Positions 10,539 through 38,188 of a stretch of DNA of 64,000 bases are shown here, one piece after another. The notes below the pieces were generated by a model. That model searched no databases and was not told the origin of the DNA. It saw only the letters and a program-made list of their open reading frames with translations. How positions within the stretch are numbered: the stretch's first letter is position 1; each line of letters starts with the position of its first letter. Origin of the DNA: an uncultured delta proteobacterium (GTDB taxonomy: Bacteria > Desulfobacterota > WTBG01 > CAIYCZ01 > CAIRTM01); contig CAWDSQ010000016.1 in the NCBI GenBank assembly GCA_963804955.1, positions 96,001 through 160,000 on the forward strand, written 5' to 3'. A program made the translations under genes and the position numbers.

Positions 10539-10888
10539 TCATCGTTTTCGCAGTATCTCCTGCCATATCCCCATGCCCCCGCAGCCGCCGCGACCCATGC
10601 CCCGGCCTCTTCCTCTGCAGCCGCCGAACGGCCTGCCCTGCTGTGCTGTCTGTCCGTGGGGTTGCCCGCGGGGCACGGTTCCGTACAGATCATAGAGCTG
10701 TCTTTGCTCCGGATCAGCCAATACGGAATAAGCCTGATTCAGGTTTTTAATATGTTCTTCCGCTGCTTCCTCCGGATTAATATCCGGATGATACTGCAGC
10801 GCCAGTGCGCGGTATGCTTTTTTTATTTCATCCGGGGTTGCGCTTTTTTCAATCTGCAGGAGCTCATAATAATCGTCGTCGCGTTCAT
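10539..10888 (-). CDS. J-domain (DnaJ) protein with Gly/Arg/Cys-rich tail; 5' frameshift
   Basis: [36 protein letters not shown]; tail [17 protein letters not shown]. Confidence 0.8.
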
Positions 10889-10935
10889 GCTGCAGCCTGT
10901 GCCTTTTAATAAGGATGATCTGGGAAAATGCCTTA

Positions 10936-12467: not shown

Positions 12468-12469
12468 GC

Positions 12470-13722: not shown

Positions 13723-13747
13723 AGCCTACCACCTTTCAGTTTGTGCC

Positions 13748-14328: not shown

Positions 14329-14390
14329 ACGTGGTTGTCTCCTTCAATTGTTGTAAGGTGTGCGTTCGCCCCAAGGGCGTCCCCTGCGCC

Positions 14391-15472
14391 TTATTCCGAA
14401 AAAAAATGCATCTGATCGCTGCAGATTTGAACATGGCGCAATATATCGTCCAGACTTTCCGTGTAATATTGCAGCGCATCGCCTCCTTCACGCAGCGCGC
14501 GCGCTATTGCCGCACCACAGCGGTAGCCTGAATCCATCGCAACGTCGATAGATGCATCGTTGAGGTATCTGAAACCACCTGCTTCGCCCGCCAGCAGCAC
14601 CCTGCCGCTGCCTGGATTCGGCGGCCACATCTTGATGATGCACCCCTCCACGCGCTCCTGAGGCCCGAGCTACACCTTGAAGTTTTCCCGGAGAAAACCC
14701 TTGAAGGCCTCCATGCGGCCGCGCACATCATCGCCCCTGAAGCCTCCGACGCAGGGCACAAGCCAAGCATCCTTGCGGTGCACGCAGCAGAGCAGTCGGC
14801 AACGCTTTTTTCAAAAAACACATGCCAGCAGCCGTCGCGCAGGTCGCCACTATCGACAATCGGACAATACTCCTGATAGTAACTCACCTCGGGCGTTGCC
14901 TCCCACACCTCCGGCGCGAGCGCCCTGCGCACTGCTGAGGCGCTGCCGTCGGCGCCGACCAGATAGTCACACTGTATCGTCCGGTTCGGATCACCCTTTC
15001 CGCCGGGGTTCAGTAGCTTGGGATCGCGCAGAAAAAGGTCGACATTGACCTGTTCCCTGTCGGCAGCACAGCCGCGAAACACGCTGTTTTCCCTGAGCGC
15101 GGCTCCGGACTGCTTCACCAGCCAGTGGTCAAATGTGCTGCGCCAGGCATTAAGATAGGTCTGCGGGAATGCATGGCCGTCTTTGGGTATCTCCCAGAAA
15201 TATTGAACAAAGCCTTTATCATGCTTCCATTCGATAATCTGCGACGCATGGATTATTTTCGGCTCACAGTAAACATCCTCCGGCGGCATTGCACCGAAGT
15301 ATTTCGGCAGCAGCTCCTGGGTTTGCCCGAACAAAACACCCGAACAGTTTTTATGCCGCGGCAGCGATTCCTTTTCGATAAGAAGCGCCTGAATACCCGC
15401 GTCATGCAAAGCCTTTGCGCACGATGCGCCTGCAGGCCCGGCGCCGATAATGACAACCTGCTGCTTTTCCAT
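14391..15472 (-). CDS. FAD-dependent oxidoreductase, geranylgeranyl-reductase family; frameshifted
   Basis: IIGAGPAG Rossmann motif, RHKNCSG, LVGADG, VLLAGEAGG. Confidence 0.8.
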
Positions 15473-15538
15473 AGAGCCTCCTTTATGGCCTACTTCCGGT
15501 AATGTCCAATCTGCATTTTTAGACTGAAGAAAGATGCC

Positions 15539-15582
15539 AGATCATATTCCCCCCGTAACCGGAGTCCGGGGGAATATGATCT
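15539..15582. terminator. 15-bp inverted repeat hairpin between genes (terminator or mRNA stabiliser)
   Basis: AGATCATATTCCCCC ... GGGGGAATATGATCT; no clear U-tract. Confidence 0.5.
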
Positions 15583-15596
15583 CCCGGCATGCTTTT

Positions 15597-15945
15597 TCAA
15601 AATCTTCGCACTTCGTTTTTTGGAAGGCTGCCTGCCTTGAATTTTTCAAGGGCCTCCTGCACTGAAAGACCTGGAGGAGCACTGTACATTGTAACTCCGG
15701 CTGCCTTCAGCACTTCATAGGCATTCGGGCCCACCTTGCCGCTTATCACAGCCTTGACCCCATGATTAAACAGGGCCTGCGCGCAGGCCGTGCCGGCGCC
15801 GGTGGCAGCCTCAGCCGAGTCATTTTTTATGGCAGACGCTTTCGCCCGTTTCCGTATCAACAAGAACAAAATAATCGCATCTGCCGAAAAGCCCGTGGGT
15901 CTGCGCAGCCAGGCTGTCGCCGCATGCTGAAATTGCAATTTTCAT
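15597..15945 (-). CDS. NifB/NifX family protein; frameshifted
   Basis: MKIAIS..GLFGRCDYFVLVD joined to GAGTACAQ..ISGKVGPNAY. Confidence 0.85.
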
Positions 15946-15958
15946 AGAGCCGCCTTTC

Positions 15959-16357
15959 TCAGTGTCCGCCGCAGCTGTCGCCATGGTCATGGGCGCAGGC
16001 AGAGGTTCCGCTGACTTTTCCCGCAAGATAGGCTTTCAGAACATTGCCAACCTGGCCGCCGACACCCGTTGCAACCTCGATACCAAAGCCATTGAACATA
16101 TCGATAGCCTTGGGTCCCATGCCGCCGGCTATCATGACATTGACATTCTGTTTTTTAATAAACTCGGGAACTGCACCGGGCACATGGCCGTTGAAAAACG
16201 GATTGGCAACCGGGTCGACCTTCTTCACTTCCGTGCCCTCGACATCCACCATCATAAAATACGGGCAGCGGCCAAAGTGCCCGCTCATTTCAGACTCAAG
16301 ACCCTTGTTTTCTTCGCAGGCAAAAGCTATTTTTTTCATGTTCCAGTTCTCCTTCAT
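15959..16357 (-). CDS. NifB/NifX family protein with His/Cys tail
   Basis: SGHFGRCPYF, IAGGMGPKA, tail CAHDHGDSCGGH. Confidence 0.88.
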   Translation of the reverse strand: MKENWNMKKIAFACEENKGLESEMSGHFGRCPYFMMVDVEGTEVKKVDPVANPFFNGHVPGAVPEFIKKQNVNVMIAGGMGPKAIDMFNGFGIEVATGVGGQVGNVLKAYLAGKVSGTSACAHDHGDSCGGH

Positions 16358-16381
16358 GATTAAATAAGTGTGTATCTTGTT

Positions 16382-17284
16382 TTATTGCTTATTAATAATT
16401 TCCAGCCACGCATCGGTAATGCCGTTAAATGCTGCTGTGGCCGGCGACTCGGGATGAGCAGAGACAAAAGGCTTGCCCTCGTCTCCGCACAGAACCATGG
16501 CCGGGTCAAGCGGAACGCGCCCCAGAAACGGCACTTTCATCTTTTTTGCTATCTTCTCGCCGCCGCCGGTTTTAAATAAATCTATGGTCTTGCCGCAGTG
16601 CGGGCACAGCATGCCGCTCATGTTTTCCACAACGCCGATTGTGGGAATTTTAAGCTCCTTGCAGAATGAGATGCTCTTTTTCGAATCAAGCAGGGCTACG
16701 TCCTGCGGCGTAGTGACAATGACCGCTCCGTCGACCTTGCCGATCAGGTGGGAAATGCTCAGCGCCTCATCGCCCGTGCCCGGCGGCAGATCAATAATAA
16801 GATAATCAAGAGCGCCCCAGTGCACTTCGCCCAGAAACTGCTTCATCACGCCATGCTTCATGGGGCCCCGCCAGATGACGGCGTGATCTTCATTCTGCAG
16901 AAAAAAACCGATCGACATAACATGTAGATTTTCCGCTGCGGCGATGGGCAGGATGCCGTCAACCGGGCCCGGCGCTGACTCAGGCCGCTCAGCATCAATG
17001 CCAAGCATCTTGGGGATATTCGGCCCGTGGATGTCGGCATCAAGAATTCCCACTTTTTTGCCCCTCAGGGCAAGAATTGCCGCGAGGTTCACCGCTACCG
17101 AGCTTTTGCCCACGCCGCCCTTGCCGCTTAAAACCATAAACTTTTTACCGATGGACCCCATGGCCGTGTCGATCAGACGCTGTGCGCGGCGTTCTTTTTC
17201 ATCCTGCGAGCAGGTGGCTGCCGTATCGCAGGACTGGCATCCGGTAGTGCTTGTGCATTCTGTACTCATTCCTTCGTTCTCCAT
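16382..17284 (-). CDS. mrp: Mrp/NBP35 (ApbC) Fe-S carrier ATPase
   Basis: SGKGGVGKS, DADIHGP, IWRGP, DLPPGTGD, ENMS..CPHC; N-terminal Cys cluster. Confidence 0.92.
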   Translation of the reverse strand: MENEGMSTECTSTTGCQSCDTAATCSQDEKERRAQRLIDTAMGSIGKKFMVLSGKGGVGKSSVAVNLAAILALRGKKVGILDADIHGPNIPKMLGIDAERPESAPGPVDGILPIAAAENLHVMSIGFFLQNEDHAVIWRGPMKHGVMKQFLGEVHWGALDYLIIDLPPGTGDEALSISHLIGKVDGAVIVTTPQDVALLDSKKSISFCKELKIPTIGVVENMSGMLCPHCGKTIDLFKTGGGEKIAKKMKVPFLGRVPLDPAMVLCGDEGKPFVSAHPESPATAAFNGITDAWLEIINKQ

Positions 17285-17285
17285 T

Positions 17286-17900
17286 CTATTTGGTATTGTG
17301 TGAAACAGATTTTTCCATTTCAGAAAAATTTCTTTTAATGATGCTTTTTGTTTCATCGACTATTTCAGCCTCCGTTCTGCCGCGCGTGAGCACGGCGCCA
17401 TATCCTTTAAGGTGCATGCCCTGAGCCGCCAGAAAGTGCCTGACGGCCTGCTCGTCTTTTTCGCCGTAGTTGCCCTGATGCGTTACGATTGCATAGACAT
17501 CCTTTCCCGCCAGGCGCCGGTGATCCAGAAATGTGCGCATGGGCGAGGCCAGCCGGTGTATCCAGATAGGGCTGGCTATGATAATCGGGTTATACTGCGA
17601 GGCATCAAGCGTTCACCGGCCCGGGCAGGTCATCGCGGTCAAACAGCTGATCGATGACGCAGTTGACTTTCCAGAGGCCCGTGCGCTCCCGTCTTCGACG
17701 TGAGTTCCAGCCGCTCGCAGCCAAAAGCGCTGCCAAGCTCCGCAGCAACAATGCTGGTGTTGCCCGTGAGGGAATAAAAAATAATCAGCGGACGCCAGGT
17801 CGCTTCCGGATCTGCCCCTGCGCCAATGCTGGAGCCGGGCCAACACATATACGCGAGAAGTGCCGTAAAAAACAGAAGCAGGATACAGCTGTTTTTTCAT
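17286..17900 (-). CDS. Exported flavodoxin-like protein, multiply frameshifted
   Basis: Signal-like N-terminus; IFYSLTGNT flavodoxin loop; ..PMRTFL.. Confidence 0.55.
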
Positions 17901-23135: not shown

Positions 23136-23681
23136 TCAGTCGATCCTGATCGCTTCACCGCAATTGAGCGTCTTTTTCGGGCTGCCGTTTTCATCAAACT
23201 GCTCGTAGGAGAGCATGCGGCCCTCTTTAAAATCGGCTTTAATTTCAATCTTGCCGTTCAGGTGATAGGTAATGCCGACACCTTCGCGCACATTATTCAC
23301 GAAATTTACCTCTTCCCGGATGCCGCCCTCTTCATAATAGACTTTATACGGGCCTTCAAGCCTGCCCTGTTTGTACACCGCCTCGGTCTGTTTGATGCCC
23401 TCTTCATAATAGGCTGTAAAGCTGGCCTTCGCGGATATTGGCTACATAGAAAAATTCCGCTTTCAGGTTGCCGTTTTCATGAAAGTGGCGCGTGGGGCCG
23501 TCAGCAGTTTGTCGTCTTTGTACGTCATTTCGGCGGAGATAGTTCCGTTTGGGTAAAATGTTTTTGTTACGCCGTTCTGCTTGCCGTCATAGGTGTAGCT
23601 GAGCTCGGCCCGCAGGGTTCCGTCGGGGTAATTTTCGCGGCGTATTGCATACTTCGTTCTTCCATCAGCGTTTCCTTTCAC
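23136..23681 (-). CDS. MORN-variant repeat (YwqK-like) protein; frameshifted
   Basis: Repeated YPDGT/YPNGT/YEEGG..E..YK.G units. Confidence 0.7.
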
Positions 23682-24254
23682 GAGTATGAGTCTTCATATT
23701 CTTCCGGTGTGTCAATATCAATGCCGGCATCCGCGTCTGGCATGTCGATGCAGCGCACCATCTCCGGCGCCTGCTCGATGACGGCCCGTCCGCCTGTGTC
23801 GCCTTCCAGGGCAAGCAGGTGCTCCCGGAAACGGGCGGGGAAAACAACCGGGCTGCCGCGCCTGCCGCCATAGACCGGGATGATAATATGTCTCTTATGG
23901 GTCCTGCCAGGCATCGATAAGCAAATTAATTGCCGCGGCATCGAGTCCGGGGTTGATCGCCGGTTAAAAACATATAGGCCTGCGGTCTGCGGCAGGCTGC
24001 TGCACGCACGCCGCTTTTACCGACGCGCTCTGACCAAGGGCTGCATCGGGATTATAGACCGCCGGATGCGGTAGCGCTCCGGCAAGCTAGCGCACGGCAG
24101 GATTTTGATAGCAAGAATAATATCATCAAGCCGCGAGGCGTCGGCCGCCTGCATGACGCGCTCGACAAGGGCGATGCCGTCCACGGGCAGCAGCAGCTTG
24201 TCTGCTGCCCATGCGGCGGGAAAGGCCTGAAGCCAGTATAATACCGGTGATCAT
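23678..24254 (-). CDS. mocA: Molybdenum cofactor cytidylyltransferase (MocA/YgfJ-like); frameshifted
   Basis: MITGIILASGLSRRMG..LLLP; GRRGSPVVF..LEGDTGGR..DIDTPEEY. Confidence 0.8.
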
Positions 24255-24259
24255 TGGTG

Positions 24260-24440
24260 CAAGATTTCTCCCTGCGATCGCAATGACAACGTTTTACGTG
24301 CGCCCAATATGATCGAGACTTACTACGTGAAGAAACATCCTTCTTGCATTGAGGGGAGAAGCCAGGATGAGGGGTTTGAAAACTTAGCAAAACATGCCCC
24401 CTCACCTCAATGCCTCTGCCCCTGCAGGGGGCGAGGAAGT
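24260..24440. repeat. Degenerate REP-like palindromic fragments
   Basis: AGATTTCTCCCTGCGATCGCAATGAC resembles 52412-52438; GATGAGGGG..CCCCTCACC arms. Confidence 0.4.
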
Positions 24441-24468
24441 GATTTACTTAATTCAAAAGCTGCCAGCT

Positions 24469-25229
24469 TTAAACCTGCCCCGACAAAACGCATATAGCTG
24501 CCCTGCTGCAACGAAGCGCGATGCAACCGACGGTTGTCTGTTGCGGGCAAGCTCCCGGGCGATCAGCTCGGCCTGCAGTCTGCAGTTCTGCGGTATCAGC
24601 TTTGTTGAGCAGAACAATTTTCCGGCTTGCTGCAGGGGCGCTTTTAAAAAGACCGTTTTCAGCCATAATAAGCCGAATAATGCTTTCCCGGTCAATCATC
24701 TCGCCGGGCTTTCTGCCGGTGCAGGCGCAGAAAAGTCCGCAGCGGTGAATGTTTTCTTCTGAAACGGCTTTCCCGAGACAGTCAAGACCGATAACGCCAA
24801 TGACCGCGGTCGTTGATTTCGGAATGACCGGCTCATAGTCGGCCGGAGCTTTGATAGGCTTGCGCTTTGCGCCGTCGGCTTCGACCAGGATGCAATCAAA
24901 CCAGCCGCTGGCGTACAGCTCGTCGATAAAGGCCGGCTCAACGCTCTTGCACCTTGCAGATTTCGCCGTGCACCAGGCCGCCTCCCAGGCACACAATCGT
25001 ACCGGGCGTGACATGCGGCAAACACCGCCGGATCCGTGCAGCCTTCAAGCATAGCAATATCGCACTGCCCCGGCTCGGGCACGCCGATATTGGTCGTGGT
25101 GGTGACCAGCACCTTTTTCCCGAGCGCTTTGAGTTCATGGGCGAGCAGGAACATGGCCGTGGTCTTGCCTCCGCCGCCGACAAAGGCAATGACTGCGGGC
25201 TTATGCAGGCGATAGATCCAGAGCCTCAT
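24469..25229 (-). CDS. yqeC: Selenium-dependent hydroxylase accessory protein YqeC; frameshifted
   Basis: FVGGGGKTT..VLVTTTT; ILVEADGAKRKPIKAP..EPVIP. Confidence 0.85.
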
Positions 25230-25235: not shown

Positions 25236-26047
25236 TCACGCAAACCTCAGGTGCGCGGGTTGCAGCCATGCTGCGCCTGCTGTGGCCTCAGCGCCGGCGG
25301 AACTGCGCACCTGAATGATTTCGGCAAGAATCGAAATGGCGATTTCCGCCGGCGTATTTGCGCCGATCTTTATGCCCACGGGCGAATGAATCTGCGCAAT
25401 GATCTCCTCTGCTACGCCATTGTCCCGCAGCTGCTGAAGCACCTTGGCGACTTTTGCCTTGCTGCCGATCATGCCCAGATAGCGGTTTTTTTATCAGGCA
25501 CTTTTCAAGCACTTCGAAGTCATGGACATGCTTATGGGTAAGAATGACGACGTAGGTCCTTTCATTGAAAGCAACCTTGTCAATGGCCGTTGCATACTCC
25601 TCGGCAATGACCGTATCAGCCCAGGGCAGGCGATCGGCATTGGCAAACTCAGGCCGGCTGTCAACAACCGTCACATTGAACTCAAGCATTTTGCCTATCT
25701 GGGCAAGGCAGGCGCCGATATGGCCGGCGCCGAAGATGACCAGCTGCGGGGCCGGCACCAGGGGCTCGATAAAAACGCTCATGCCGCCGCCGCAGGTCAT
25801 GCCGATGTCCTTCAGGTCATGGGTAGATCAGGCGCGCTGTGCCGCCGCCATGAGCTTCATCGCTTCATCGATTATTATCTTCTCAATAGCTCCGCCGCCG
25901 ACAGTGCCGGCTATCGTAGCCGTCAGCCCGCACGAGCATGCGGGCACCTTCCTCGCGGGGGGCAGAGCCTCGCGATTCAATGACGGTGGCAAGCACCACG
26001 GGCTGATTGCTTTTTCTGGCCGCAACGATTTCTTCAAAAATATCCAT
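25236..26047 (-). CDS. xdhC: XdhC/CoxF-family Moco chaperone; frameshifted
   Basis: GSAPRE.GARM, GTVGGGAIE, MTCGGG, IFGAGHIG, MIGSKAK, PVG..IGANTPAEIAISILAE. Confidence 0.88.
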
Positions 26048-26260
26048 GATGATTCTCCTGTAAATCTGTTTGTTGCAGGGCATAACCTGTTTTGCCCCAT
26101 GCAAGCACTTAACTTTAGCACAGTAGAAGCCAGAATCTCAGGAGCCATGCAATCCAGGAATAAAAATTTTGACTTTCTATGTCACGATACTCACTTGTTA
26201 GCGATGCACAATTGTGTGTTCATCTTCATGGCGGCATGAAGCCTGTTCTGGAATCTGCCC

Positions 26261-26709
26261 CTACTTCTTCTCATAATCCTCAATCGCCATCTGCAGGGCC
26301 CTGATGCCCGCCAAGGGGGCAGCCGGTCTGCAGCTCAATGCCGCCCTCAAAAGCTTTTTCTATATCAGCATTGCTGAGCAGCTTTGCCTCGGCAACGGTT
26401 TTCCCGAGGGCAAGCTCCGTGAGCATGCTGTTCACCGCAATGGTTGATGGCGCAGCCGTTTGATTTAAAGCGGATATCAAAAACGCGGCCGTCTTCAATC
26501 ATAATCCACAGCTCGATTTTATCGCCGCAGGCAGGATCATCAAGCAGGGCATACCCATCGGCAAGCCCGTCGCTCATCTCGCCGAAATTGCGGGGCTGCA
26601 CAGCATGCTCGCGCACCAGCGCCGGGCAGTCTTCACCCGGATCGTCTAATTTCGGAGCGCCTTCTGCGCCTCCCCAGGCGCATGAATCTTCATAAAACGG
26701 ATCATCCAT
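26261..26709 (-). CDS. Divergent IscU/NifU-like protein; frameshifted
   Basis: EHAVQPRNFG, DPACGD, FKSNGCA, LALGKTV.EA, TGCPL..ALQMAIEDYEKK. Confidence 0.75.
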
Positions 26710-27955
26710 TTGAAAATTCCTTTCAAATATTTTTTACGCAGCTCTATAAACTGCTCAAGTGTTTTCAGATTATGGCAGGGCAGAAAATGATCTACATACG
26801 GCATGGCTGTTGACATGCCCAGGCACAAAGGCTCATACCGGTCATATTTCAGGTTCGGATTAAGCCAGATAATTTTGCGGAATCCGCGCTTGAAAAGAAC
26901 CATCTGTTTTTTTAGCAGATCCGCATCGCCCTTGTCCCAGCCATCGCTCAAAACGACCAGTATGCGGTTGCGCTTGCGGAGCTTGCCGCCGTACAGTTTA
27001 TTGAATTCTGCAAAGCAGCCGCCGATATCCGTGCCGCCCGACCAGAACTGCACTTTTTTCGACAGAATCGTCATGGCCGATTCAAGCGTACGGTTGCTGA
27101 GTATATCGCTGATGCACATGAGCTGTGTGCCGAAGACAAATGTTTCAGTATCGCGCAAATATTTCTGCAGGCTGTAGATGAATTTTATGAGAAAGCGGCT
27201 GTAGATATCCATGGAGCCGCTCACGTCGGCAAGCAGCACGAGCTTTGACTCCCGGGGCTTGCGCTGTTTGGTCAGTATCTGCATAATTTCGCCGCCCCGC
27301 TGCGTCGACTGGCGGATCGAGCGGCGCAGATCGATCATTTTGCCCTTATTGCTGGGTTTGAACCGGCGGCCGAGCTTTTCTTTCACCTTAATCCTGAAGT
27401 TGCGAAAAATTTCATCAAACAGGGCAATCTCATAGGGCGCGATCAGCTCAAAATCCTTCTCCCGCAGGGACTGGCCGAGCGAATAGGTCGGAACATTAAC
27501 CTCATCATACTGGTTGCAGAGCTTTTTAGAATCTTTTTTCGGATTTCCCTCTTCATCCTCGGGAGATTTGCTCTGTCTTATTGACGGATGAGTCCTTATC
27601 ATCGGGCTCTTCATTGCTGCCGCCCTGGCTCTTGGGAATAGTGACCCCGGTGCGCCAGAACTGCAGAAACAGGATATCAAAAGCCGCCCGGTATTTCTGG
27701 CTCATGATCATATTGGTCCGCAGAGCCAGATAGAACTCAAAGCGGCTGTTGATATCGATATGGGCAAGGGCTGCAGATGGCATCCCGCTCATTTGAGGTA
27801 TGCACGGGGATTTTATTTACGCGCAGCAGCTTGGCAAACCGGATAATGCGCTGGATAAGGGACGCCGTGCGCTGCTCAAGGGTTACGCTGTCCTGCTTCT
27901 TTTTCTGCTCTTCGAGCTTTTTCTGCGCTTCAACCGGGACAAGAAGAACTTTCAT
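26706..27955 (-). CDS. coxE: CoxE-like VWA-domain protein; frameshifted, 3' end approximate
   Basis: IDLRRSIR, LADVSGSM (MIDAS), FVFGT, WSGGTDIG, LSDGWD, IWLNP. Confidence 0.85.
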
Positions 27956-28836
27956 TCGATCTTAGCCTCTGCATGCACCAGCACCGTGGTTGACAAGTCC
28001 TTGAATTTTTTCACATCTTCCTTGAATTTGAACAGGCAGCCCGCGGTCATATCCATGGTGGTCTCATCTATCTCGTCTTTATCAAGAATGGTGAGCGCCT
28101 GCGACCAGTCAAGCGTTTCAGCAACGCCGGGCCGCTTGTAAAATTCCTGATCCCTGAGCGATGCCATGATGCGGGAGATTTTTTTGGCAAGGGTTGCTTC
28201 GATATTGGGCACCTTTGCGAGTATTATTTCCATCTCGCGCTCGGGCGTCGGGTAGTCGATAAAATGGTACAGGCAGCGCCGCTTGAGCGCGTCGTGCAGC
28301 TCCCGGACGCGGTTTGAGGTAATGATAACCAGCGGCTTGTGCTTGGCCTTCACCGTGCCCATTTCAGGAATGGTGACCTGGAAATCAGAGAGTATCTCAA
28401 GCAGAAAAGCCTCGAATTCCTCATCTGCCCGGTCGACCTCGTCAATGAGCAGAACTGCCTTATCCTGACCCCGCACGGCCTGGAGAAGGGGCCTGGGGAT
28501 GAGAAACTCCTCGGTAAAAACATTTTCAACATGCCCGGCAGCGCCTGCGCTGTCAAGGGCTTTAATTTTTAAAAGCTGCTTGGCATAGTTCCACTCATAA
28601 ATCGCTGAAGTTGCATCAAGGCCTTCATAGCACTGCAGGCGAATAAGCTTTCTGCCCAGAACATTTGCCAGCACTTTGGCAACCTCTGTTTTCCCCACGC
28701 CCGGCTCGCCTTCCAGCAGCAGCGGCTTTTCCATTTGCATCGACAGATACAGCGTAAATGCAAGGGGATCATCGCAGATATAATTCTCCTTTTTCATGGA
28801 TTCCTTGATTTTGTCAACCGAGTCGAGCTTTTTCAT
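27952..28836 (-). CDS. coxD: MoxR-family AAA+ ATPase (CoxD-like)
   Basis: LLEGEPGVGKTE, RLQCYEGLD, YEWNY, LLIDEVDRADEEFE, ELHDALKRRC. Confidence 0.9.
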   Translation of the reverse strand: MKKLDSVDKIKESMKKENYICDDPLAFTLYLSMQMEKPLLLEGEPGVGKTEVAKVLANVLGRKLIRLQCYEGLDATSAIYEWNYAKQLLKIKALDSAGAAGHVENVFTEEFLIPRPLLQAVRGQDKAVLLIDEVDRADEEFEAFLLEILSDFQVTIPEMGTVKAKHKPLVIITSNRVRELHDALKRRCLYHFIDYPTPEREMEIILAKVPNIEATLAKKISRIMASLRDQEFYKRPGVAETLDWSQALTILDKDEIDETTMDMTAGCLFKFKEDVKKFKDLSTTVLVHAEAKIE

Positions 28837-28959
28837 GGCAGCCTCATAATTATCTTGAAGTATATAACCTTTATCAGTAAAAGAAAAGGAACCTGGCAAT
28901 AGGGAAAGGAGGGTAACAGATCAGGAAACACTTCCAGAACCTACTGCCAGGCTTTTTAT

Positions 28960-29776
28960 TTAAGCTGTTTGATTGTTCCAGTATAAAATCGCTTCGAGCA
29001 CCGAACCGCCTAGAGCGCGGGCCTTGTCGGAAATCGTGTAGCAGTGCTCGCGGACCGGTCGCGGATCGACATCGCCGATCTTGAGCCCCTTGCGGCACCT
29101 CGCGGCCGTTCATGATAAGGCCCCGCACCACGCCGTCAAACTGGGCACGCACGGGCTTGTCCTCAACATAGCAAATTATGTCGTCCTTTTTTACCGGGCG
29201 CCGATATCAAGCACATGCCTGACCGCTGCCTGCGCAGGGCGAGCGCAGCACCCGCTCGGCAGCATAGCCCATCACCGGATCGGGCGTGCCCGTGTCGGGC
29301 TCTGCCGCAGCCCTTGAAAAACAGCCGGCCCAGATCATGGCCGCGGCATTGTCTCAATGACCACATGCACCTGTTTGCCCGCTTCAAAGCCCGGACCCAG
29401 GGCAATTGTAAGCGGCGCCATGTCCATGCGCATGCCCGTATCGCGCTTGGCAAGGGTGGCATCAACGACGACATCTGCCTTATAGTCTTTCAGAACAGCA
29501 GCCGCAGGATCGACCAGCACCGGGATTTGACCCGCTGCCAGGCTCTCTTGAATTTCATGATATTGAGTGCGCATTTCGTGCGCGGTACATCTCTTCAACC
29601 AGCAGTTTCCCCGTCGATAACCGCCTGGGCAAAAGACACGGTCCGCCGCACGACCAGCGGCTGGCAACTTCAAGCAGCAGCACCTTAAACCCGCTGCGGA
29701 ACAGACGGTGCGCAACACCGGTGGCCAGATCGCCACCGCCGCGAATAATGACGCACATGTCTTTAATCTCTTTCAT
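28960..29776 (-). CDS. yqeB: Selenium-dependent molybdenum hydroxylase system protein YqeB (EF2563 family); frameshifted
   Basis: IIRGGGDLATGVAHRL, VVDATLAK, IALGPGF, IETM.GHDLG, KIGDVDPR, ISDKARALGGSVLEA. Confidence 0.88.
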
Positions 29777-29777
29777 A

Positions 29778-29956
29778 AAAAGCCTTTATGATGAGGCTTT
29801 TAGAGCACCTTTGCCGAAGTGCATTCCAAGACCTCCGGCAAAAGCGCTTAAAGGGTATTTGAGGAAACGAACCGAACGAAGTCGTTCGGGTTCGATGAAC
29901 AGCCTGAGCGGTCAAACTGTTCGGTCATGGCAGGACGCTTCTATCTGCCATCACCG
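29778..29956. other. Run of five adjacent hairpins in the yqeB leader (candidate structured RNA or MITE-like element)
   Basis: Stems at about 29778-801, 29800-851, 29869-893, 29897-922, 29922-956. Confidence 0.45.
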
Positions 29957-30010
29957 GAAAGCTGGACAGTGTCTGAACCAACAAGGCGGATTAACATCCC
30001 GAAACTTAAT

Positions 30011-30044
30011 AAAAGCAGGCGCCCCTTTCGGGGCGCCTGCTTTT
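30011..30044 (-). terminator. Rho-independent terminator after the XDH-family large subunit
   Basis: AAAAGCAGGCGCCCC-TTTC-GGGGCGCCTGCTTTT. Confidence 0.9.
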
Positions 30045-30055
30045 GTACAGCACTT

Positions 30056-32443
30056 TTACTTAATACCCTGTTCCTTGATAGCCTTCAGCACCTTCTCAGC
30101 GGTGATGGGGGCTTCGTTAAACTGGATGCCGATGGCGTCGTAAATTGCATTTGCAACCGAGCCGATCGGACCCATGAGTGCCGATTCACCGCAGCTCTTT
30201 GCTCCCATCGGGCCGATGGGATCAGGAGCGCTTTCAACCAGAATGATTGTAGCATCGGGCATATCAGACGGTCCGAGCATCTTGTAGTCGGTAAAGTCAG
30301 TGTTCAGCACGCGGCCCTGCTTGTCATAGGCGTACTCTTCCGTGAGCACAAACCCGAGACCCTGGTGCGCGCCGCCTTCCAGCTGACCTTCGACTGAAGG
30401 CGGATGGATGGCTTTGCCGATATCGTGAGCATTCACCAGCTTAAGCACTTTCACCTCGCCGGTCTCGGTGTCCACTTCGACTTCGGAGATGCAGGCGCCG
30501 AAGGGCGGTGAGCAGTGCTTGGCAAAGTAGCTTGAATAGCCCTGGATCTGGCCCGGGATACCAATGGTCTTGCCGGTGGCTGCATCAATGTAGTTATAGA
30601 CGCCTTCCTTGGCGATCTTCACGGCGCTGATCGACTTCTGGGGATTGCCCTTAACGCTTATGATCTTGTCTTTCATTTCAAGATCTTTCACATTGGCTTC
30701 CAGAAGCTGGGCAGCCCGCTCAAGCAGCTGCTTCTTGACGCTTTCGCAGGCTTCGATGGTGGCAGGTCCTGCGCAGTATACGGTACGGCTTGCATGAGCG
30801 CCGATGTCAAAACCGCACATATCGGAGTCGCCGGACCGCAGATGGATATCCTCCATCGGGAAACCCAGCGTTTCAGCCGCCATCTGCGTTATGGCGGTAT
30901 GGCCGCCGGTGCCGAGATCGGATATCTGCTGAATCAGCTCGACCGTGCAGTCTTCATTGAGCTTGGCCGTGCAGACGGAATGCTCAAGCAGCATGGGAAA
31001 AGCGCCTGAGGTGTGCTGCATGACGGCAACGCCCAGACCGCGGCGCTTGATGCCGGTCTGCTTGGCATACTTTTTCTTCTTTTCATACCAGCCGATCTCT
31101 TTGGCTGCAAGATCGATGCAGTCATTGAGACCGTCGGAGGCGTAGGTCACGCCCTTCAGCCATGTCTCATCGCCGATACGACTTGTGCCACTTCTTGCGC
31201 CACTCGAGCTCGTCCAGACCGAGCTCCTTGCACATCCGCGTGATCATCTGCTCGCCGGCAGAAGGTCAGCTGCGGGTTGCCGTAGCCGCGGTAGGCGCCG
31301 GTGGGCACTTCATTGGTGAAGTAGCCTTCGGTCTGGCAGCCCATGGCCTGCCATTTGTACATGCCGTGAAGAAAAGCGGCGCGCAGAATGGCGGCCCGGA
31401 GCCATGGGTATAGTAGCCGCCTTTGCGGGCCATGATACATGGCATCGAGTGCGACGGGGGTGCCGTCTTTTTTGAAGCCGCATCTTGAACCAGCAATGGC
31501 CGGGATAGCGGGTTTCAGAGGCTACCCAGTCTTCCTCGCGCAGGAACTCCATGCGCACGGGGTGGCCGGGCACTGCCATGGCCATGGCGCAGGCATGGGG
31601 CTCGCCGATCATGCCCAGGCGAACGCCGAAACCGCCGCCCACAATGGTCTGCACCAGGCGAACGCGGGTCAGGGGCAGCTCGAACAGCTCGGCAATCAGC
31701 ACCTGCACGGGCTTGGGCATCTGGGTTGATGTCCAGATGTTCAGGCGGCCGCGCTCATCATAATGGGCCACATAGGAGTGGTTTTCCATCTGGCACTGCT
31801 TCTGCTTGGGAACATAAAAGCGTGTCTTCGATTACATAATCGCACTTGTCAAACAGCTGGACCGCGCGTTTTGCCGTTCTTGTCGTTCCAGCCATAGCGC
31901 TTGCCCGGGAAGAACGATTCGGGCAGATCAAAAGCCATGTTGCCGGGCTTGAGCGGGCGTGAACAGATAGCCGTTCTTCTTGTCGCCTTCGGCCTTTGAT
32001 GCCTCGCAGGTCATAAAAACGGGCAGGGGCTCATAGGTGACCTTGATCTTGTCTGCTGCGCGCTCGGCTGCTTCTTCGGTTCTTGCGATAACGCCGCAAA
32101 TGGCATCGCCCTGATGCTTGACGACCTTGTTGAAGATGTTCAGGTCGGCGATTTCGCCGAATACTTCGCCGAAAATTTCAGGCACGAGCAGCTTCATAAC
32201 CGTCGTGTTGTAGGGTTTTTTCGTGACATCATCGGGGCCGATGATTTTTACGACGCCGGGCACCTTCAATGCTTCGGTAAAATCAAGCTTTTTGACTTTA
32301 GCGTGAGCATATTCCCAGCAGCGCACGACTTTGCCGTAGTACATGCCGGGCATGCGCATGTCGCCGGCATAGATGGACTGACCGGTTACCTTCTCACGGG
32401 AGTCAACTTTGGGGATTCGTTTTCCAATAACGGATTCTGCCAT
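30056..32443 (-). CDS. Xanthine-dehydrogenase-family molybdopterin-binding large subunit; split by several frameshifts
   Basis: VIGKRIPKVD..KVTG, QMENH, GGGFG, GAYRGYGNPQ, DLGTG, HASRT, GQLEGG, AKSCGE. Confidence 0.9.
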
Positions 32444-32458
32444 GCTGTTCCTCCTTTC

Positions 32459-33010
32459 CTATCGCTTGCCGGCGGCTGTTTTTTTACTAGCCACCTGAAC
32501 AGCTTTGACAATTTTTACATATCCGGTGCAGCGGCAGATATTGCCTTCCAGACCGCGCCGGATTTCCTCTTCCGTGGGCTTTGGGTTCTTCTCAAGAATG
32601 GAAACTGCCTTGAGAACCATGCCCGGCGTGCAGAAGCCGCATTGTATGGCGCTTTCATCGACAAAGGCCTTCTGAACGGGATGCAGCTCGCCATCTTTTG
32701 CAAGACCGGCAGCGGTGATGATATGCTTGCCGTCCATGGTGGCTGCCAGTGCTATACAGGCAAGAATGGGTTTCTTCTTCGCCTTTTCGATGGAGCAGTA
32801 GGTTGTGTGGGCGTCGACGGTCTTGCATTTCATGCCGCCTTCTTCCACCAGCAGCACGGTGCAGGCGCCGCATTCGCCGCGGCCGCAGCCGTATTTAACG
32901 TCAGTCAGGTTCAGCTGATCCCTGATGACCTGAAGAAGGGTATGATGAACGGGTACGTTCAGATTATACTCCTCCCCATTTATATACAGGGTTATTGCAC
33001 GTTTTTTCAT
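32459..33010 (-). CDS. XDH-family 2x[2Fe-2S] small subunit (CoxS-like)
   Basis: KYGCGRGECGACTV, QCGFCTPG, GNICRCTGY. Confidence 0.92.
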   Translation of the reverse strand: MKKRAITLYINGEEYNLNVPVHHTLLQVIRDQLNLTDVKYGCGRGECGACTVLLVEEGGMKCKTVDAHTTYCSIEKAKKKPILACIALAATMDGKHIITAAGLAKDGELHPVQKAFVDESAIQCGFCTPGMVLKAVSILEKNPKPTEEEIRRGLEGNICRCTGYVKIVKAVQVASKKTAAGKR

Positions 33011-33053
33011 GATTAAATCTCCTTAAAGATAATGTTGTGAAATAGTCCTGTAA

Positions 33054-33924
33054 TTACTTTCCAAGTGCTTCAACAATTATGCGCTTGACCATGACGCCCG
33101 CTACATCGCGCCGATACTCTGCCGTGGAGCGAACATCATCAATGGGCTTAATTTCCGTGGGGACTGTTTCAACAATCTTCTGGAGAACATCGTCGGTAAT
33201 CTGGCTGCCTTTCAGGAGCGCCTCGACTTTTTTCAGCCGAATGGTGGTCGGCGCCACTGCGCCGATGGCAACGCGTGCTTCCTTGCAGGTCTTGCCTGAC
33301 ATGTCCAGACGCACGGCAACATTGACCTTGGAAAGGTCAAGGGTGGTGCGGGTCATGCGGGCAAACGCATTGCAGGAGCCGGTTGTCACCGGGGGCAGCT
33401 TTATTTCGACGGCAAGTTCATCGCTTTTGCAGGCCGTTTCTTTATACTTCACGATAAAAGTCATCGATGCTGACTTCCCGCTTGCCCTTGGGGCCGCGCA
33501 GGACCAATTTGCCGCCAATCGCAAGGATCGCGCAGCAGCAGTCCCCTGAGGGGGAAGCGCGCATGATATTACCAACAACGGTGCCCATATTGCGTGTCTG
33601 GGGCGTACCGTTAATGGCTGCTGATTTCCACAGAGCAGGATATCTCTTCTGCACGTCGGCATTGTCGGCAACCTGTTGCAGCGTTGCCATGGCGCCGATG
33701 CGCAGCCCGTTTTTGCTGTCGTACTCGACATAGTCAAGACCGGGAATTTCGGCAAGACTGATAACATTGGGGCTGCCAAATCCCTTGGTCAACGAGATCA
33801 CTACGTCGGTGCCGCCAGCCATGACGGAAGCCTTGTTTTTCAGCTTGCCAAGCAAGTCAACGGCTTCCTTGATGCTCTGGGGCATCAGCAGCTCGAATTC
33901 CGGCAGTATTCGACTACTGGCCAT
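33054..33924 (-). CDS. XDH-family FAD-binding medium subunit (CoxM-like); one frameshift
   Basis: MAGGTD, LRIGAMATL, QTRNMGTVVGN..ASPSGD, IGAVAPT, PIDDVRSTAEYR. Confidence 0.9.
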
Positions 33925-34101
33925 AAGTTAAACCTCCTTATTCAATTAGTTTAAACGTGTACGTGGGTTTCTACCAAATATAAAGGCTTTCTGTTCCAGC
34001 CACCTCCTTTCGAAACTGATTTGTATAAAATAAAAAGAACTGAATGATTCTTGCGTCGTGCTGCTATCGCTTCCGCAACAGCGGCATACTCAGACTGCTG
34101 C

Positions 34102-34256
34102 CAATAAAAAACCGGTCCCGTGACGTCAAGGACCGGCTCGCTTACAATCGCGAACCGTATCTCCTTTCCGCCACGGGAGGCATGACCTTTCGGGCCATGC
34201 CCTGTCGTCCGTCTGTTCACAAGCTTGGGCTTTTAGAATGCGGCCGGCTTGGAGAT
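34102..34256 (-). ncRNA. Moco/Tuco riboswitch (P3-less) with intrinsic terminator, upstream of the XDH-family operon
   Basis: P1 AUCUCC/GGAGAU; UCUAA-AAGC/GCUU-GUGA in P2; P4 GGGCAUGGCC-CGAAA-GGUCAUGCCU; CCCGUGGCGGAAAGGAG; terminator AGCCGGUCC..GGACCGGUUUUUU. Confidence 0.8.
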
Positions 34257-34298
34257 CCCTGCTGTTCCGAATCTCTGCCGCGTATGCCTGCTCTGCCG

Positions 34299-35696
34299 CT
34301 ACGAGACTTTACACTCTACCCTTACGCACCCGGGAGCGTCAACGCGTCGCCGGTAAAAAATGCGGCAACATAAAAATGTCACCCCAGCGGGCTCAGTCAC
34401 ACGCGCTGCCATGGGCCAGCACCGCATAGGCCCAGGTCGAATTTCCCGGCTCGCTGCGCGGTTTGGAGCTATTTGCCGGTCACCGGCTCGCGCACCGGCG
34501 TGGGACCATGGCCGGCAATAACAGTCATTGCCATAATAGACCCGCCACGAGCCGTCCAGAAGCTGCCGCACCTCGACCGGCGCTTTTGCATATGATATGC
34601 GCTTGCGGCCGGGCGGCACATCGATTCGGATATCCCCGAGCACGACCTTATTATCATGCTGCACGGTTGCGGGATAATAAAAGCTGCAGACCCGCTCAAG
34701 ATCAACGCCTTCGGGCAGCTTCCGCCATGCAGGCTCGGGCTGTTCGGGCTCGCAGGCATGGCTGCGGTTGAATGCCGCTATAAGGCCATGATCAAGCAGC
34801 TTATTGGCCTTGTCAGTTCTGCTATATCTCTGCCTTCAAACTGGCCGGCAAGAAATGTTTCAAACAGAAGCCGTAATGCTCATGATCCGGCGCTTGCTTT
34901 CAAGATAATGCGCGATGCCCAGCGCCTGCAGCGCCCGCTCGACCTGGCTCGGGTCCCGCTCGCCGCGCAGCTCCTCTTCAAGAGTCCAGGAGCGGTCGCT
35001 GCGGCGCACGGCGCTGCGGCTGTGCTGGCAGAATGCCGGTGGCACGCCGCAGGTGCGCACAACCTCACGCATCAGCCAGAGATACGCCTCTGCTTGTTTG
35101 TGCCGGGAAAAAGCGCGCCGCAAGACAGCTCAGCGTGGCCGTGTCGACCGCTGCCATAAAGCAGCTTTCGTGCTCGCCAAACCATTTTTTCGTAATGCCG
35201 CCCCACAGCACCATCATGCCTTCACTGGCATAGCAGGCTGACCGCGGGTCGCCGCTGCCTGTCCTTCCGGCCTGGTTCGCTTGATGCCCTCGGCGCGCAG
35301 AATTCTTCGAATTGTTTCACGGCTGAGGCTGATGCCGTGCTCGGCCTGCAGCCGCAGCGTTAGCTGCGTATCATTTAGAGCCGCGTACCGCGTGCGGGCA
35401 AGATGCAGAATGCGCGTGCGCACATGATCACTTAAGGCCCTGTGCGAGCGCCTGCCGATATTGCCGTGCAGCACGCCGCGCGCGCCGTTGCGGACAAATG
35501 CCTGCTTGAGCCGTTTTGCCTGCCGGTAGCTGACGCCTATTTTACCTGCGCGCCTCTCGCAGCGTAATATAGCCGTCAAGCACCATCTGCAGAAAATGGA
35601 TGCGCTGGAGCTGACCGGGGCTGAACGCGAGCAACTGCGTTTGCAGGCCGGCGCATCGGCGGCTATCTTCTTGTTGAGCTGTTCTGCATGGCTCAA
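34299..35696 (-). mobile_element. ISNCY (IS1202-group)-like transposase derivative, DDE residues substituted, frameshifted
   Basis: GVSYRQAKRLK..HGN, ISLSRETIRRIL, WTLEEELRG, EVRQLLDGSWRVYY; end-like GGGGTGACATTTTTATG near 34370-34385. Confidence 0.75.
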
Positions 35697-35771
35697 AAAA
35701 ACCCCTTCTGCATCATATAGGAAAAAAACAGCGGGGTTTCGCAGTCGGCCATGGTCTGCTCATTGAATATT

Positions 35772-36432
35772 TCACGCGGGGTGCCCATGTCCACGTTCTT
35801 TGCCGTCGGCATATACAATGACTCTATCTGCCAGGCAGTAGGCCTCGAAAATATCATGGGTCACCAAAACAACCGGTATGCGGTAAAGTTGTGCCTGATG
35901 TCGCGCAGAAAGTCGCGCATCTCCGTGCGCAGATGCTGAGTCGAGGGCTGAGAAGGGCTCGTCAAGCAGCAGCAGATCGGGCTGCCGGATAAGTGCCCGG
36001 GCAAATGCCACACGCTGTTTCTGCCCACCTGAAATTTCGCAGGGCAATTTATACTCAAGTCCTTCAAGGTGAAAAAGATCCATGATGTCCCGCAGACGCC
36101 GGTTGCGATCCTGCGGGCTGATGCCTGCGGCGCCGTACAGAATATTTTTTTCAACGGTCATATGGGGGAACAGGGCAAGATCCTGAAACACATAGCCGAT
36201 GCGGCGCTTCTGAGGGGGCAGACATATATTCGCTGACGGTATCAAGCAGCACGGTGTCACCAAGCGTTATGAAGCCCTTGTCGGGCTTCATGTGGCCCGC
36301 AATCAGCTGCAGGGTCAGTGACTTGCCTGCTCCGGATGGCCCGAAAATGACGGCGAGCTCATCCCCGACCTCCCAGGAAACAGCAAGATGAAATCCTTTT
36401 ACTTTTTTATCGACCGTGACTTTAAAACCCAT
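35772..36432 (-). CDS. modC: Molybdate ABC transporter ATPase; frameshifted
   Basis: [39 protein letters not shown]. Confidence 0.88.
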
Positions 36433-37186
36433 ATCGATATCCTTGCATTCCGGGCTACATGCTCTGTTGCGTGTTTTTTAAAACGGCGACAGGCCGTTTC
36501 TGCCGCATTTGCGAAACCGCGCGGTCAGGCTGTTTGCGATCAGGAGCAGCCCGCCGGATACGACTGTAAAAACCGCGACCATGACATGCGCCCGCGGCCA
36601 GTCGCCGCTTGCAGCGCTTGTGTAAATGGCAAGGGGCATGGTGTCGGTTCGGCCGGGAATATTGCCGGCCATCATGAGGGTTGCCCCGAATTCGCCCATA
36701 GCACGGCAAAAGAGAGCAGAAGCGCGCCGGCAATGATTCCCGGTTTTGCCAGGGGCAGTATCACTTTGAAAAAAGTTTCAAGCTCGGAGCGGCCCAGGGA
36801 ATATGATGCATTTACTAAATTGACATCGACCGACTTCAATGGCGGCCCGTGATGTCTTGACCATCAGCGGCAGAGACACGACAAACGAGGCCAGCACAGC
36901 GGCATACCAGGTAAACATGATGCTCAGGCCCTGTACTCTCGTATATCCAGCTGCCCAGAAAGCCGTTTCTGCCAAAAAAGATAATCAGGTAGTACCCTGT
37001 CACGCTCGGCGGCAGCACCAGCGGCAGGGTGCAGAGCATGTCAAGCAGCTGCCTGCCGCGAAAGTCACATCGCGCAAGAACATAGGCAGCTGCCATACCA
37101 ATAACGATCACAAAGCAGGTTGCGGTCAGTGCGACCTGCAGCGACAATCGGAGTGAAAAAAGTGTTGTGCCGTCAAGACCGCTCAT
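36429..37186 (-). CDS. modB: Molybdate ABC transporter permease; frameshifted, 3' end approximate
   Basis: LPLVLPPSVTGYYL, GEFGATLMMAGNIPGRT. Confidence 0.88.
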
Positions 37187-37960
37187 GGTTTTGCAAAACC
37201 GTATTTTTCAAGAATGCTGCGTGCTGCGGTGTCACCGGCAACAAACTCGCACAAACGTTCTTGCCGCTTGTGGGCTTTTCGTGTTTTTTATAACCGCTGC
37301 CGGATACAGCACCGGGCTGTGAGCTGCTTGCGGGACACGCAAAAAAAATGCTCGCCCCGGTCGGCTGCGTGAGCGCATCGGTTTTGTACACAATGCCCGC
37401 ATCGACTTCTCCGCGAACCACATAATCGAGCACCTGTCGCACATTTTCACCCATAATGAGTTTTTCTTTGAGCACATCGCTCAACTTGAAAAAAGCAAGC
37501 ACTTCCCCTGCATACCGTCCGGCGGGAACGGTCTGCGGATTGCCGATACCGATTCTGCGAACTTCGGGTTTTTTTAAATCGTCCATGCCTGCAAGCTTCA
37601 GGCTCGACTGGGAGGGTTTCACAAGGACGATACTGTTGCCGGCAAACACAGCCCGGGTTTCGGGGATCGAGTAGATGTTTGCTTTCTATGTCATTCATGT
37701 CTTTGGGCGATGCCGAGGCAAACACATCAACCGGCGCGCCCGCTTCGATCTGCCGGGCAAGGTCGCCGGAACCGCCGAAATTGAAAAGCACTTTAACCGT
37801 CGGGTTTATTGCTTCAAAGCTCTTGCCAATCTCTTAAAAAGCGTTTTTCAGGCTGATGGCGGCGGACACGGTTATCTCGGCCTGTCCGGAAGCATTGAAA
37901 CGGGTAGACAGAGAAAAAGCAAAGGGCTGCGGCGGCAAACAGGAAACGTTGACGATTCAT
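37173..37960 (-). CDS. modA: Molybdate-binding periplasmic protein; frameshifted
   Basis: SD AGGAGG; AAISL, FGGSGDLARQIEAGAP.DVFASA, VPAGRY, NVRQVL..GEVDAGIVY. Confidence 0.88.
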
Positions 37961-37983
37961 GGTCCTCCTTCATGAAAAACGGG

Positions 37984-38139
37984 CAATAAAAAAAGCCGCT
38001 CCCGTGGCGACACGAGACCGGCTCATTGGAGCAATCGACCAATCTCCTTTCCGCCACGGGAGGCATGACGTCTTTCGGCATAAGCCCTATCGGTCGAACA
38101 TCCATTGTTTTTTTACGGTAGGACTTTCGACTCGGAGAT
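37984..38139 (-). ncRNA. Moco/Tuco riboswitch (P3-less) with intrinsic terminator, upstream of modABC
   Basis: AUCUCCGAG..CCUAC..AUGG..AGGG..GAAA..AUGCCUCCCGUGGCGGAAAGGAGAU; terminator AGCCG..CACGGGAGCGGCUUUUUUU. Confidence 0.88.
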
Positions 38140-38159
38140 ATAGTTTGTAATTATTAGTA

Positions 38160-38188
38160 ATAATAATGATTTTGTCTATGTGCGTCAA
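38160..38188 (-). promoter_or_regulatory. sigma70 promoter for riboswitch-modABC
   Basis: TTGACG-N17-TATTAT about 20 nt upstream of the aptamer. Confidence 0.65.

Follow-up and report, generated by a model that had tools for sequence, protein, structure and literature searches.

Which metal cofactor is read by a riboswitch of the molybdenum cofactor (Moco) family that lacks helix P3 and stands ahead of molybdate uptake genes and of a molybdenum enzyme? This question is raised by a 64,000-nucleotide (nt) stretch of a contig from an uncultured delta proteobacterium (assembly GCA_963804955.1, contig CAWDSQ010000016.1, positions 96,001 to 160,000; hereafter the window), in which two copies of the Rfam Moco RNA motif (RF01055) precede the genes for a ModABC transporter (copy B) and an operon for an XDH-family enzyme (copy A). 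Below we argue that the two RNAs are probably transcriptional OFF switches, describe the genes that they would control and the occurrence of the same RNA class in related genomes, and weigh which cofactor they may sense.

Two aptamers without P3 and their terminators

A cmscan search of the whole window against Rfam gave two matches above the gathering score, both to RF01055 (gathering score 36 bits) and both on the minus strand: riboswitch B at 38028-38149 (54.8 bits, E = 2.3e-10), which was rediscovered in genome searches, and riboswitch A at 34145-34266 (44.0 bits, E = 3.3e-07), in which the outer part of P2 is weakened. These matches enclose the spans 38042-38139 and 34159-34256, at which an earlier reading made without database searches (the sequence-only reading) had placed two P3-less Moco aptamers and for which it had named an Infernal search with the Rfam model as a check; location and class stood, and the strand was the sole point in need of correction. 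In both alignments the P3 positions of the model are deleted, and P2 and P4 are joined by ~5 nt. The conserved core is present in both copies and comprises P1, P2, P4 and P5, the segments CUCCGAG, CUA, AUG, CCGA.AGGG, CCUCCCG and GGAAAGGAG, and a GAAA loop on P4 (for the tetraloop receptor in P2 the assessment was visual only). The longest run identical in A and B is the 28-nt core that had been seen at the outset (34159-34186 and 38042-38069); this 28-mer has no third occurrence in the 4.26-Mb assembly, and the two aptamers are identical in 86 of 132 aligned columns. The compensated pair (UC/GA versus CC/GG) that the sequence-only reading had given for copy A corresponded to no pair that we could assign. 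The start of modA lies 68 nt past match B and that of the gene for the XDH FAD subunit ~220 nt past match A. A third RF01055 copy (38.5 bits), likewise followed by a terminator, is found upstream of moaA, 25 kb to the left of the window. A and B are genuine P3-less aptamers of the Moco/tungsten cofactor (Tuco) class, far beyond chance.

Each aptamer is followed on the minus strand by an intrinsic terminator, i.e. a G+C-rich hairpin and a U-tract, at 37984-38024 in leader B (hairpin 37993-38024, -21.5 kcal/mol when folded alone) and at 34103-34139 in leader A (hairpin 34109-34139, -17.7 kcal/mol). Both arms of terminator B are complementary to the 3' half of aptamer B, and the 3' arm of the terminator can form 12 pairs with the aptamer segment CUCCCGUGGCG in B (G-U pairs allowed) and 8 pairs in A. 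In folds computed on each full leader, from P1 through the U-tract, this alternative pairing dominates: the minimum-energy fold is an antiterminator in both leaders, at -64.5 kcal/mol versus -53.4 kcal/mol for aptamer plus terminator in B (a gap of 11.1) and at -73.2 versus -56.6 kcal/mol in A (a gap of 16.6). The antiterminator is a long helix in which the CUCCCGUGGCG segment of P5, the A-rich joiner, the P1 3' strand and the linker are paired with both terminator arms. As antiterminator and terminator exclude each other, this layout argues for a transcriptional OFF switch, which is what the sequence-only reading had drawn from the pairing of the terminator 3' arm with the aptamer; the advantage of 11-17 kcal/mol that the antiterminator holds over aptamer plus terminator agrees with it. 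Upstream of match B by 11 nt lies a promoter-like site (38160-38188, minus strand; TTGACG, 17 nt, TATTAT) with 10 of 12 consensus matches, a consensus match only; the corresponding site in leader A (34313-34342, minus strand) is weak, with 9 of 12 matches.

The same architecture is found in relatives. Of 41 genomes searched (the source and 40 relatives), 35 contain RF01055; 122 matches over the cut-off were kept and six below it were dropped. P3 is absent from all 122 aptamers, none of which has an insertion of at least 4 nt at the P3 position. For 116 of these aptamers, RNAalifold found P2 and P4 with five columns between them, and 15 of the 18 pairs show compensatory changes. In 70 leaders with a terminator, the P5 segment of each leader was compared with the 3' half of its own terminator: the longest complementary run has a mean of 6.84 nt, compared with 5.43 +/- 0.14 nt for shuffled partners, no shuffle out of 500 reaching 6.84. 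The terminator contains the exact reverse complement of the variable GNNN of its own leader in 25 of 59 cases, as against 40 of 708 for other variants. These figures are somewhat overstated because related genomes are not independent. Covariation across homologs, which had been proposed as a further check, is thus seen both within P2/P4 and between P5 and the terminator.

Combining the matches, the competing folds and the covariation, we suggest, with a probability of about 0.8, that A and B are P3-less RF01055 switches that turn off modABC and the XDH operon by transcription termination. In this model, in which we infer that a ligand binds and which way the switch responds, (i) the 3' half of the aptamer (P5, the A-rich joiner, the P1 3' strand and the linker) would pair with the terminator arms when the cofactor is scarce, resulting in read-through, and (ii) binding of a metal-pterin cofactor would lock P1 and P5 in the aptamer and so allow the terminator hairpin to form, at which transcription would stop. 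Copy B would in that way stop transcription ahead of modABC and a conserved transposase-like gene, copy A ahead of the only XDH-family operon of the assembly, which comes with its own cofactor-tailoring genes, and the third copy, outside the window, would act likewise ahead of moaA.

Genes behind the proposed switches and their recurrence in relatives

All genes described here are on the minus strand. That copy B gates modABC, as the sequence-only reading had it, is supported by the three genes directly downstream. The modA gene (37173-37960) starts with an ATG at 37960 behind a Shine-Dalgarno (SD)-like site at 37963-37969; it is frameshifted in the assembly, with PF13531 on two fragments and TIGR01256 at 84.1 and 61.2 bits on two pieces. 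It is followed by fragments of modB (36455-37186), for which no Pfam match was found in the window and which are assigned by synteny with the relatives' loci L034 and L035, the representative of the modB cluster matching TIGR02141/TIGR01581, and by modC (35772-36432), which is in two fragments that both match PF00005 and whose orthologue in L034 reaches 222.8 bits with TIGR02142, under the cut-off of 285. The intact modA orthologue in L034 scores 200.4 bits with TIGR01256 (cut-off 62.5) and 42-47 bits with the WtpA models, far under their cut-offs. By its sequence the predicted binding protein behind copy B belongs with the ModA equivalog rather than with TupA or WtpA, an assignment from which discrimination between molybdate and tungstate is not readable. 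The idea that ModABC is the sole importer of molybdenum and tungsten was dropped: TupA and WtpA were not found in the assembly, but the assembly is 87% complete. Since a TupA-like gene is present in all four same-genus relatives, it is very likely that Tup and Mod are separate systems in the lineage.

The last gene behind modC is a fragmented ISNCY-type transposase-like gene (34299-35696; NF033594 at 177 bits, under the cut-off of 250). This gene, which has HTH domains and is also found at L034:11074-12363 (minus strand), is single-copy in the assembly. The same-genus genome G003 is syntenic across it, and there, too, modC lies on one side of the ISNCY-type gene and the XDH riboswitch on the other. 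The gene has the look of a resident one under riboswitch control rather than of a mobile element. In G016 the ISNCY-type gene (C18:30357-32161) has a P3-less aptamer of its own and precedes a riboswitch and XDH genes, and in G012 it is found downstream of a MoeA-like gene.

Copy A is directly followed by the genes for the three subunits of an XDH-family enzyme, in line with the initial proposal that it gates a molybdenum-enzyme operon: the FAD-binding subunit (33054-33924, one frameshift; PF00941 at 127 bits and PF03450 at 98.5 bits on two overlapping frames), the 2Fe-2S subunit (32459-33010; PF01799, PF00111) and the molybdopterin (MPT)-binding large subunit (30056-32443, three fragments; PF01315, PF02738, PF20256), which is the single PF02738 locus in the assembly. 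The next genes are, in this order, yqeB for selenium-dependent Moco maturation (28957-29766), a CoxD/MadB-like AAA ATPase gene (27952-28899; NF047784 at 290.8 bits, under its cut-off), a gene for a CoxE-like VWA protein (26646-27680; PF05762 at 158.8 bits), one for a NifU-N-like protein (26365-26709), an xdhC-type maturation factor gene (25288-26181, limits approximate; PF13478 here, PF02625 and PF13478 in the L034 orthologue), yqeC (24469-25229, two fragments; PF19842 at 85.7 and 58.3 bits) and a fragment of a MobA/MocA-like nucleotidyl transferase gene (23681-24447), for which the match is weak (PF12804 at 29.8 bits on 23681-24016). The yqeB fragments of the window have no Pfam match and are assigned by synteny: positions 26253-34012 align to L034 2841-10577 at 92%, and L034:5545-6354 matches TIGR03309 at 356 bits. 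We take YqeB and YqeC to be markers of selenium-dependent molybdenum hydroxylases. With FAD, 2Fe-2S and MPT subunits together with YqeB and YqeC, the operon behind copy A has the predicted gene complement of such a system. The new element at this locus is the target, i.e. a selenium-dependent XDH-family molybdenum hydroxylase operon and, in relatives, MOP-type enzymes; literature searches gave no specific report of a P3-less riboswitch ahead of an XDH-family gene.

The nearest loci in public data carry labels of uncultured deltaproteobacterial or Thermodesulfobacteriota genomes from metagenomes. From 26 kb to 38.1 kb, both riboswitches included, the window is syntenic at ~80-92% identity with three same-genus genomes, in which a tandem pair of aptamers precedes modA versus the single copy found here. 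To describe the targets of the 122 aptamers, genes downstream were clustered by BLASTP, each cluster being named from one representative, and a terminator was counted if within 40 nt of the aptamer. The first downstream gene encodes MoaA for 24 aptamers in 24 genomes (terminator in 18 of 24), a Porin_O_P-type porin, usually with a GEGP dihaem protein, for 22 in 18 genomes (15 of 22), the XDH FAD subunit for 15 in 11 genomes (12 of 15), TupA for ten in ten genomes (10 of 10), ModA for nine in six genomes (8 of 9), an AOR-family enzyme for nine in nine genomes (0 of 9) and a MOP-type molybdenum aldehyde oxidoreductase (NF045668, 1692 bits) for five in four genomes (1 of 5). Operons of the MoeA-like/XdhC/ModA type follow seven aptamers in five genomes (7 of 7), and other genes 21 aptamers in 12 genomes (12 of 21). 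Nine genomes have the P3-less class ahead of both tungsten-type and molybdenum-type genes. The link between the riboswitch and the predicted XDH operon is recurrent in the lineage without reaching far: of 80 loci in the species collection that encode FAD-subunit relatives, 40 were scanned with Rfam, and RF01055 lies upstream in nine of the 20 closest homologues and in none of 20 that are more distant, at 34-42% identity. Of the 11 closest loci without the RNA, nine were rescanned at E <= 0.01 and gave no RF01055.

The commonest target other than MoaA is the porin of 460-490 amino acids (e.g. L053:386-1858 on the plus strand, L125, L129 and L134), often with tupA nearby; through this Porin_O_P-family porin, tungstate or molybdate may pass the outer membrane. 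In L134 (G040:C34:7911-8430) three P3-less aptamers stand in tandem ahead of the porin/GEGP operon, similar to the triple arrangement in Syntrophomonas wolfei. In three further loci (L045 in G003:C22, L048 in G004:C110 and L060 in G007:C129) P3-less aptamers lie 175-445 nt upstream of the gene for a NiFe(Se) hydrogenase small subunit, a target with no obvious link to molybdenum or tungsten.

Tungsten or molybdenum cofactor

If A and B are OFF switches, it matters which form of the cofactor turns them off. In declining order of plausibility, the ligand may be (i) either metal form, to which we tentatively lean, (ii) Moco, as plain end-product feedback, which is possible, (iii) the tungsten cofactor only, which we consider doubtful, or (iv) something else, which is quite improbable. 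The third of these deserves the closest scrutiny, since under it tungsten sufficiency would shut off molybdate uptake and the molybdenum enzyme, a form of cross-metal repression or isoenzyme switching. Cobalamin riboswitches offer an analogy in that they repress B12-independent isoenzymes.

Support for a ligand restricted to the tungsten cofactor comes in the first place from the literature. According to Regulski et al. 2008 (PMC2408646), P3 is absent in 58 of 176 Moco RNAs, and its absence is associated with tungsten-cofactor genes, an association that the sequence-only reading had quoted correctly; exceptions are a molybdate transporter of Pelobacter carbinolicus and putative Moco sulfite oxidases of S. 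wolfei, and these authors suggest that such genes might be repressed when the tungsten cofactor rises. The idea of cross-metal repression, which the sequence-only reading had put forward for A and B, was thus already voiced for S. wolfei (PMC2408646), and at this locus it is a known speculation on a new target. In work on Eubacterium limosum (PMC11725836), P3-less leaders of the terminator type respond to tungsten limitation, the genes focA and fetABC1 being de-repressed. In the assembly itself, ~20 AOR-family loci contrast with one XDH-family locus. Finally, the leaders of the nine tungsten-type AOR genes of relatives have no terminator, and ON switches at these genes would fit a tungsten-first hierarchy; in their minimum-energy folds the SD sequence pairs with the P1 5' strand in four of nine and with the CCUCCC core in two of nine. 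However, any SD sequence is by nature complementary to CUCC, which makes the ON reading of the AOR leaders a weak lead only.

Several observations stand against binding of the tungsten cofactor alone. All 122 aptamers lack P3, and this ligand would leave these genomes without any Moco sensor. The same RNA class with the same OFF platform stands ahead of modA (terminators in eight of nine) and of the MoeA-like/XdhC/ModA operons (seven of seven), for which end-product feedback by Moco is the simpler account. Deletion of P3 in Escherichia coli abolished regulation and did not switch specificity, as noted by Regulski et al. 2008 (PMC2408646). A division of the aptamers into subtypes by metal was tried and rejected: between 19 tungsten-type leaders (tupA and AOR) and 36 molybdenum-type leaders (XDH, MOP, modA and MoeA-like) no alignment column meets a strict criterion of separation, and with any one column at most 85% are classified. 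Tungsten-type leaders tend to have a P5 loop that ends in UUUGG, and the loop is more variable in molybdenum-type leaders; this tendency is inconsistent, the XDH leaders of G018 and G020 also having UUUGG. As for the neighbours with which Regulski et al. 2008 correlated P3-less RNAs, the genes adjoining A and B, modA and the XDH-family operon, are neither tungsten-specific nor MPT-synthesis genes; among the three copies in the assembly only the third, ahead of moaA, precedes a gene of the MPT type, and the assembly is nonetheless rich in AOR genes.

The AOR gene that the sequence-only reading had seen at the left end of the window exists (6-1316, minus strand; PF02730 and PF01314). Its proposed role of taking over when the XDH-family enzyme is shut off is not supported: nothing links it to this locus, the gene is 33 kb from the riboswitches, the cmscan of the whole window placed no RF01055 ahead of it, and it is one of ~20 distinct AOR-family loci (20 places on 12 contigs) in the 4.26-Mb assembly, an unusually large and presumably tungsten-dependent set. 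Nothing points to common substrates of the XDH-family enzyme and AOR, because the former is marked by YqeB/YqeC as a selenium-dependent hydroxylase. Adjoining the AOR gene, the minus strand at 6780-17359 encodes small Nitro_FeMo-Co (NifX/NifB-like) proteins, CbiA/ParA-type Fe-S NTPases, a radical SAM protein, DUF364/DUF4213 ('heavy-metal chelation') proteins, NifS and NifU; in G012 (L080) a DUF364/DUF4213 protein is encoded by the first gene behind a P3-less aptamer.

An extension of the same idea is that the P3-less aptamers bind the tungsten cofactor selectively and act with opposite polarities, i.e. as terminator-based OFF switches on molybdenum uptake and molybdenum-only enzymes and as SD-releasing ON switches on tungsten AOR genes. 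This would amount to a tungsten-before-molybdenum hierarchy made of RNA only, and we regard it as unlikely; the AOR leaders taken by themselves may be ON switches. In these leaders (e.g. L050, L075, L041 and L111) the start codon lies 6-24 nt past the aptamer match, and the SD sequence can pair with the P1 5' strand. The AOR leaders of G001, G004 and G010 have in common a linker, UUUCAAACAC, that can pair with the P5 loop and joiner. In L075 (G010:C121) the genes for a tungsten-type AOR and a MOP-type molybdenum aldehyde oxidoreductase are arranged head to head, each with its own P3-less aptamer (15584-15709 on the minus strand and 15840-15958 on the plus strand, 130 nt apart), and form a natural pair for metal specificity and polarity.

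Condition of copy A and implications

Returning to the suggestion that A and B are termination OFF switches, whichever form of the cofactor they bind, five points weigh against it: (i) copy A reaches 44 bits only, with a poorly paired outer P2, and two loci of relatives carry decayed remnants of the aptamer at the same site; (ii) the genes downstream of A and B are frameshifted in the assembly; (iii) the folding energies take no account of co-transcriptional kinetics; (iv) the terminator finder is crude, and related genomes are non-independent samples; and (v) there is no agreed rationale for an enzyme gene that is switched off by its own cofactor.

With respect to the second point, dense frameshifts at ~17600-39800 of the window break genes for sigma-54 activators as well as the mod, XDH and maturation genes, and both flanks keep intact long frames. 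Contigs of three to four independent short-read metagenome runs agree with each other in contradicting the window at 12 places with indels of 1-2 nt, and 47 further indel places come in addition to these 12; the relatives' contigs, which bear on indels and not on transcripts, share at most 0.16 of words. In G002, of the same genus, the open frames of modA, modB and modC are full length (275, 234 and 270 amino acids), as are those of XDH subunits (289 and 183 amino acids). As relatives' contigs disagree with the window and the frames of G002 are full length, we read the frameshifts as probable assembly-specific errors.

The first point suggests another explanation for copy A, namely that it is a decaying relic that keeps the 3' half and the terminator and binds its ligand poorly, the XDH operon being constitutively attenuated or read through. 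Orthologues of copy A in G001-G003 score 64-67 bits compared with its 44.0, its outer P2 is mispaired with six non-standard P2 positions, and the aptamer folded alone lacks the consensus P2. The remnants in relatives point in the same direction: at L137:1150-1400 and L139:1150-1400, where the FAD subunits are 91% and 85% identical, a mutated aptamer is followed by a terminator, and a search at E <= 0.01 gave no Rfam match. Part of the lineage seems to be losing the switch on the XDH operon through decay. For copy A itself we nevertheless consider decay to a relic improbable: it is still over the gathering score, its P1, P4, P5 and antiterminator pairing are intact, and two of the indels contradicted by the relatives' contigs (34128 and 34157) fall in leader A, so that the damage may partly be sequencing error. 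That A and B resemble the motif by chance, or are simple terminators that sense nothing, is very unlikely in view of E-values of 2.3e-10 and 3.3e-07 over all Rfam, the compensatory changes in P2/P4 among the 116 aptamers, and the position of the aptamers directly ahead of molybdenum and tungsten cofactor genes in 35 genomes.

Set beside known systems, the proposed OFF switches A and B resemble the E. coli moaA Moco riboswitch in belonging to RF01055, in having the core of P1, P2, P4 and P5 with a GAAA loop and in acting as OFF switches on cofactor-pathway genes. They differ from it in lacking P3 and in having intrinsic terminators, whereas the E. coli RNA, as described by Regulski et al. 2008 (PMC2408646), has P3, hides the ribosome-binding site in P1 and shows no response to tungstate. 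Closer to A and B are the P3-less RNAs reported in the same source ahead of a predicted molybdate transporter in P. carbinolicus and of putative Moco enzymes in S. wolfei, among which terminators and tandem copies occur (PMC2408646). The enzyme target there is sulfite-oxidase-like (PMC2408646); here it is of the XDH family with YqeB/YqeC in 11 of 35 genomes and of the MOP type in four. The Tuco riboswitches of E. limosum are likewise members of RF01055 without P3; terminators occur in two of the five, whose genes go up when tungsten is limiting; in contrast to A and B, their targets are WOR1, tupABC, iron transporters and focA, and a molybdenum-only enzyme is not among them in the accessible part of that paper (PMC11725836).

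A and B are further members of a known riboswitch family, and as annotation the locus is otherwise ordinary. It sharpens the question of which ligand the P3-less RNAs bind without answering it. The rule that absence of P3 denotes the tungsten cofactor is treated in the literature as if settled and, in the E. limosum paper (PMC11725836), is taken as confirmation. In the lineage analysed here one and the same P3-less class fronts molybdenum-only enzymes of the XDH family and the MOP type, the tungsten AOR family, and uptake genes of both kinds, tupA and modA. Two possibilities follow: the rule may be too simple and the aptamers blind to the metal, or these cells may indeed repress molybdenum functions with the tungsten cofactor. 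The locus offers a clean, conserved pair of leaders with which to decide between them.

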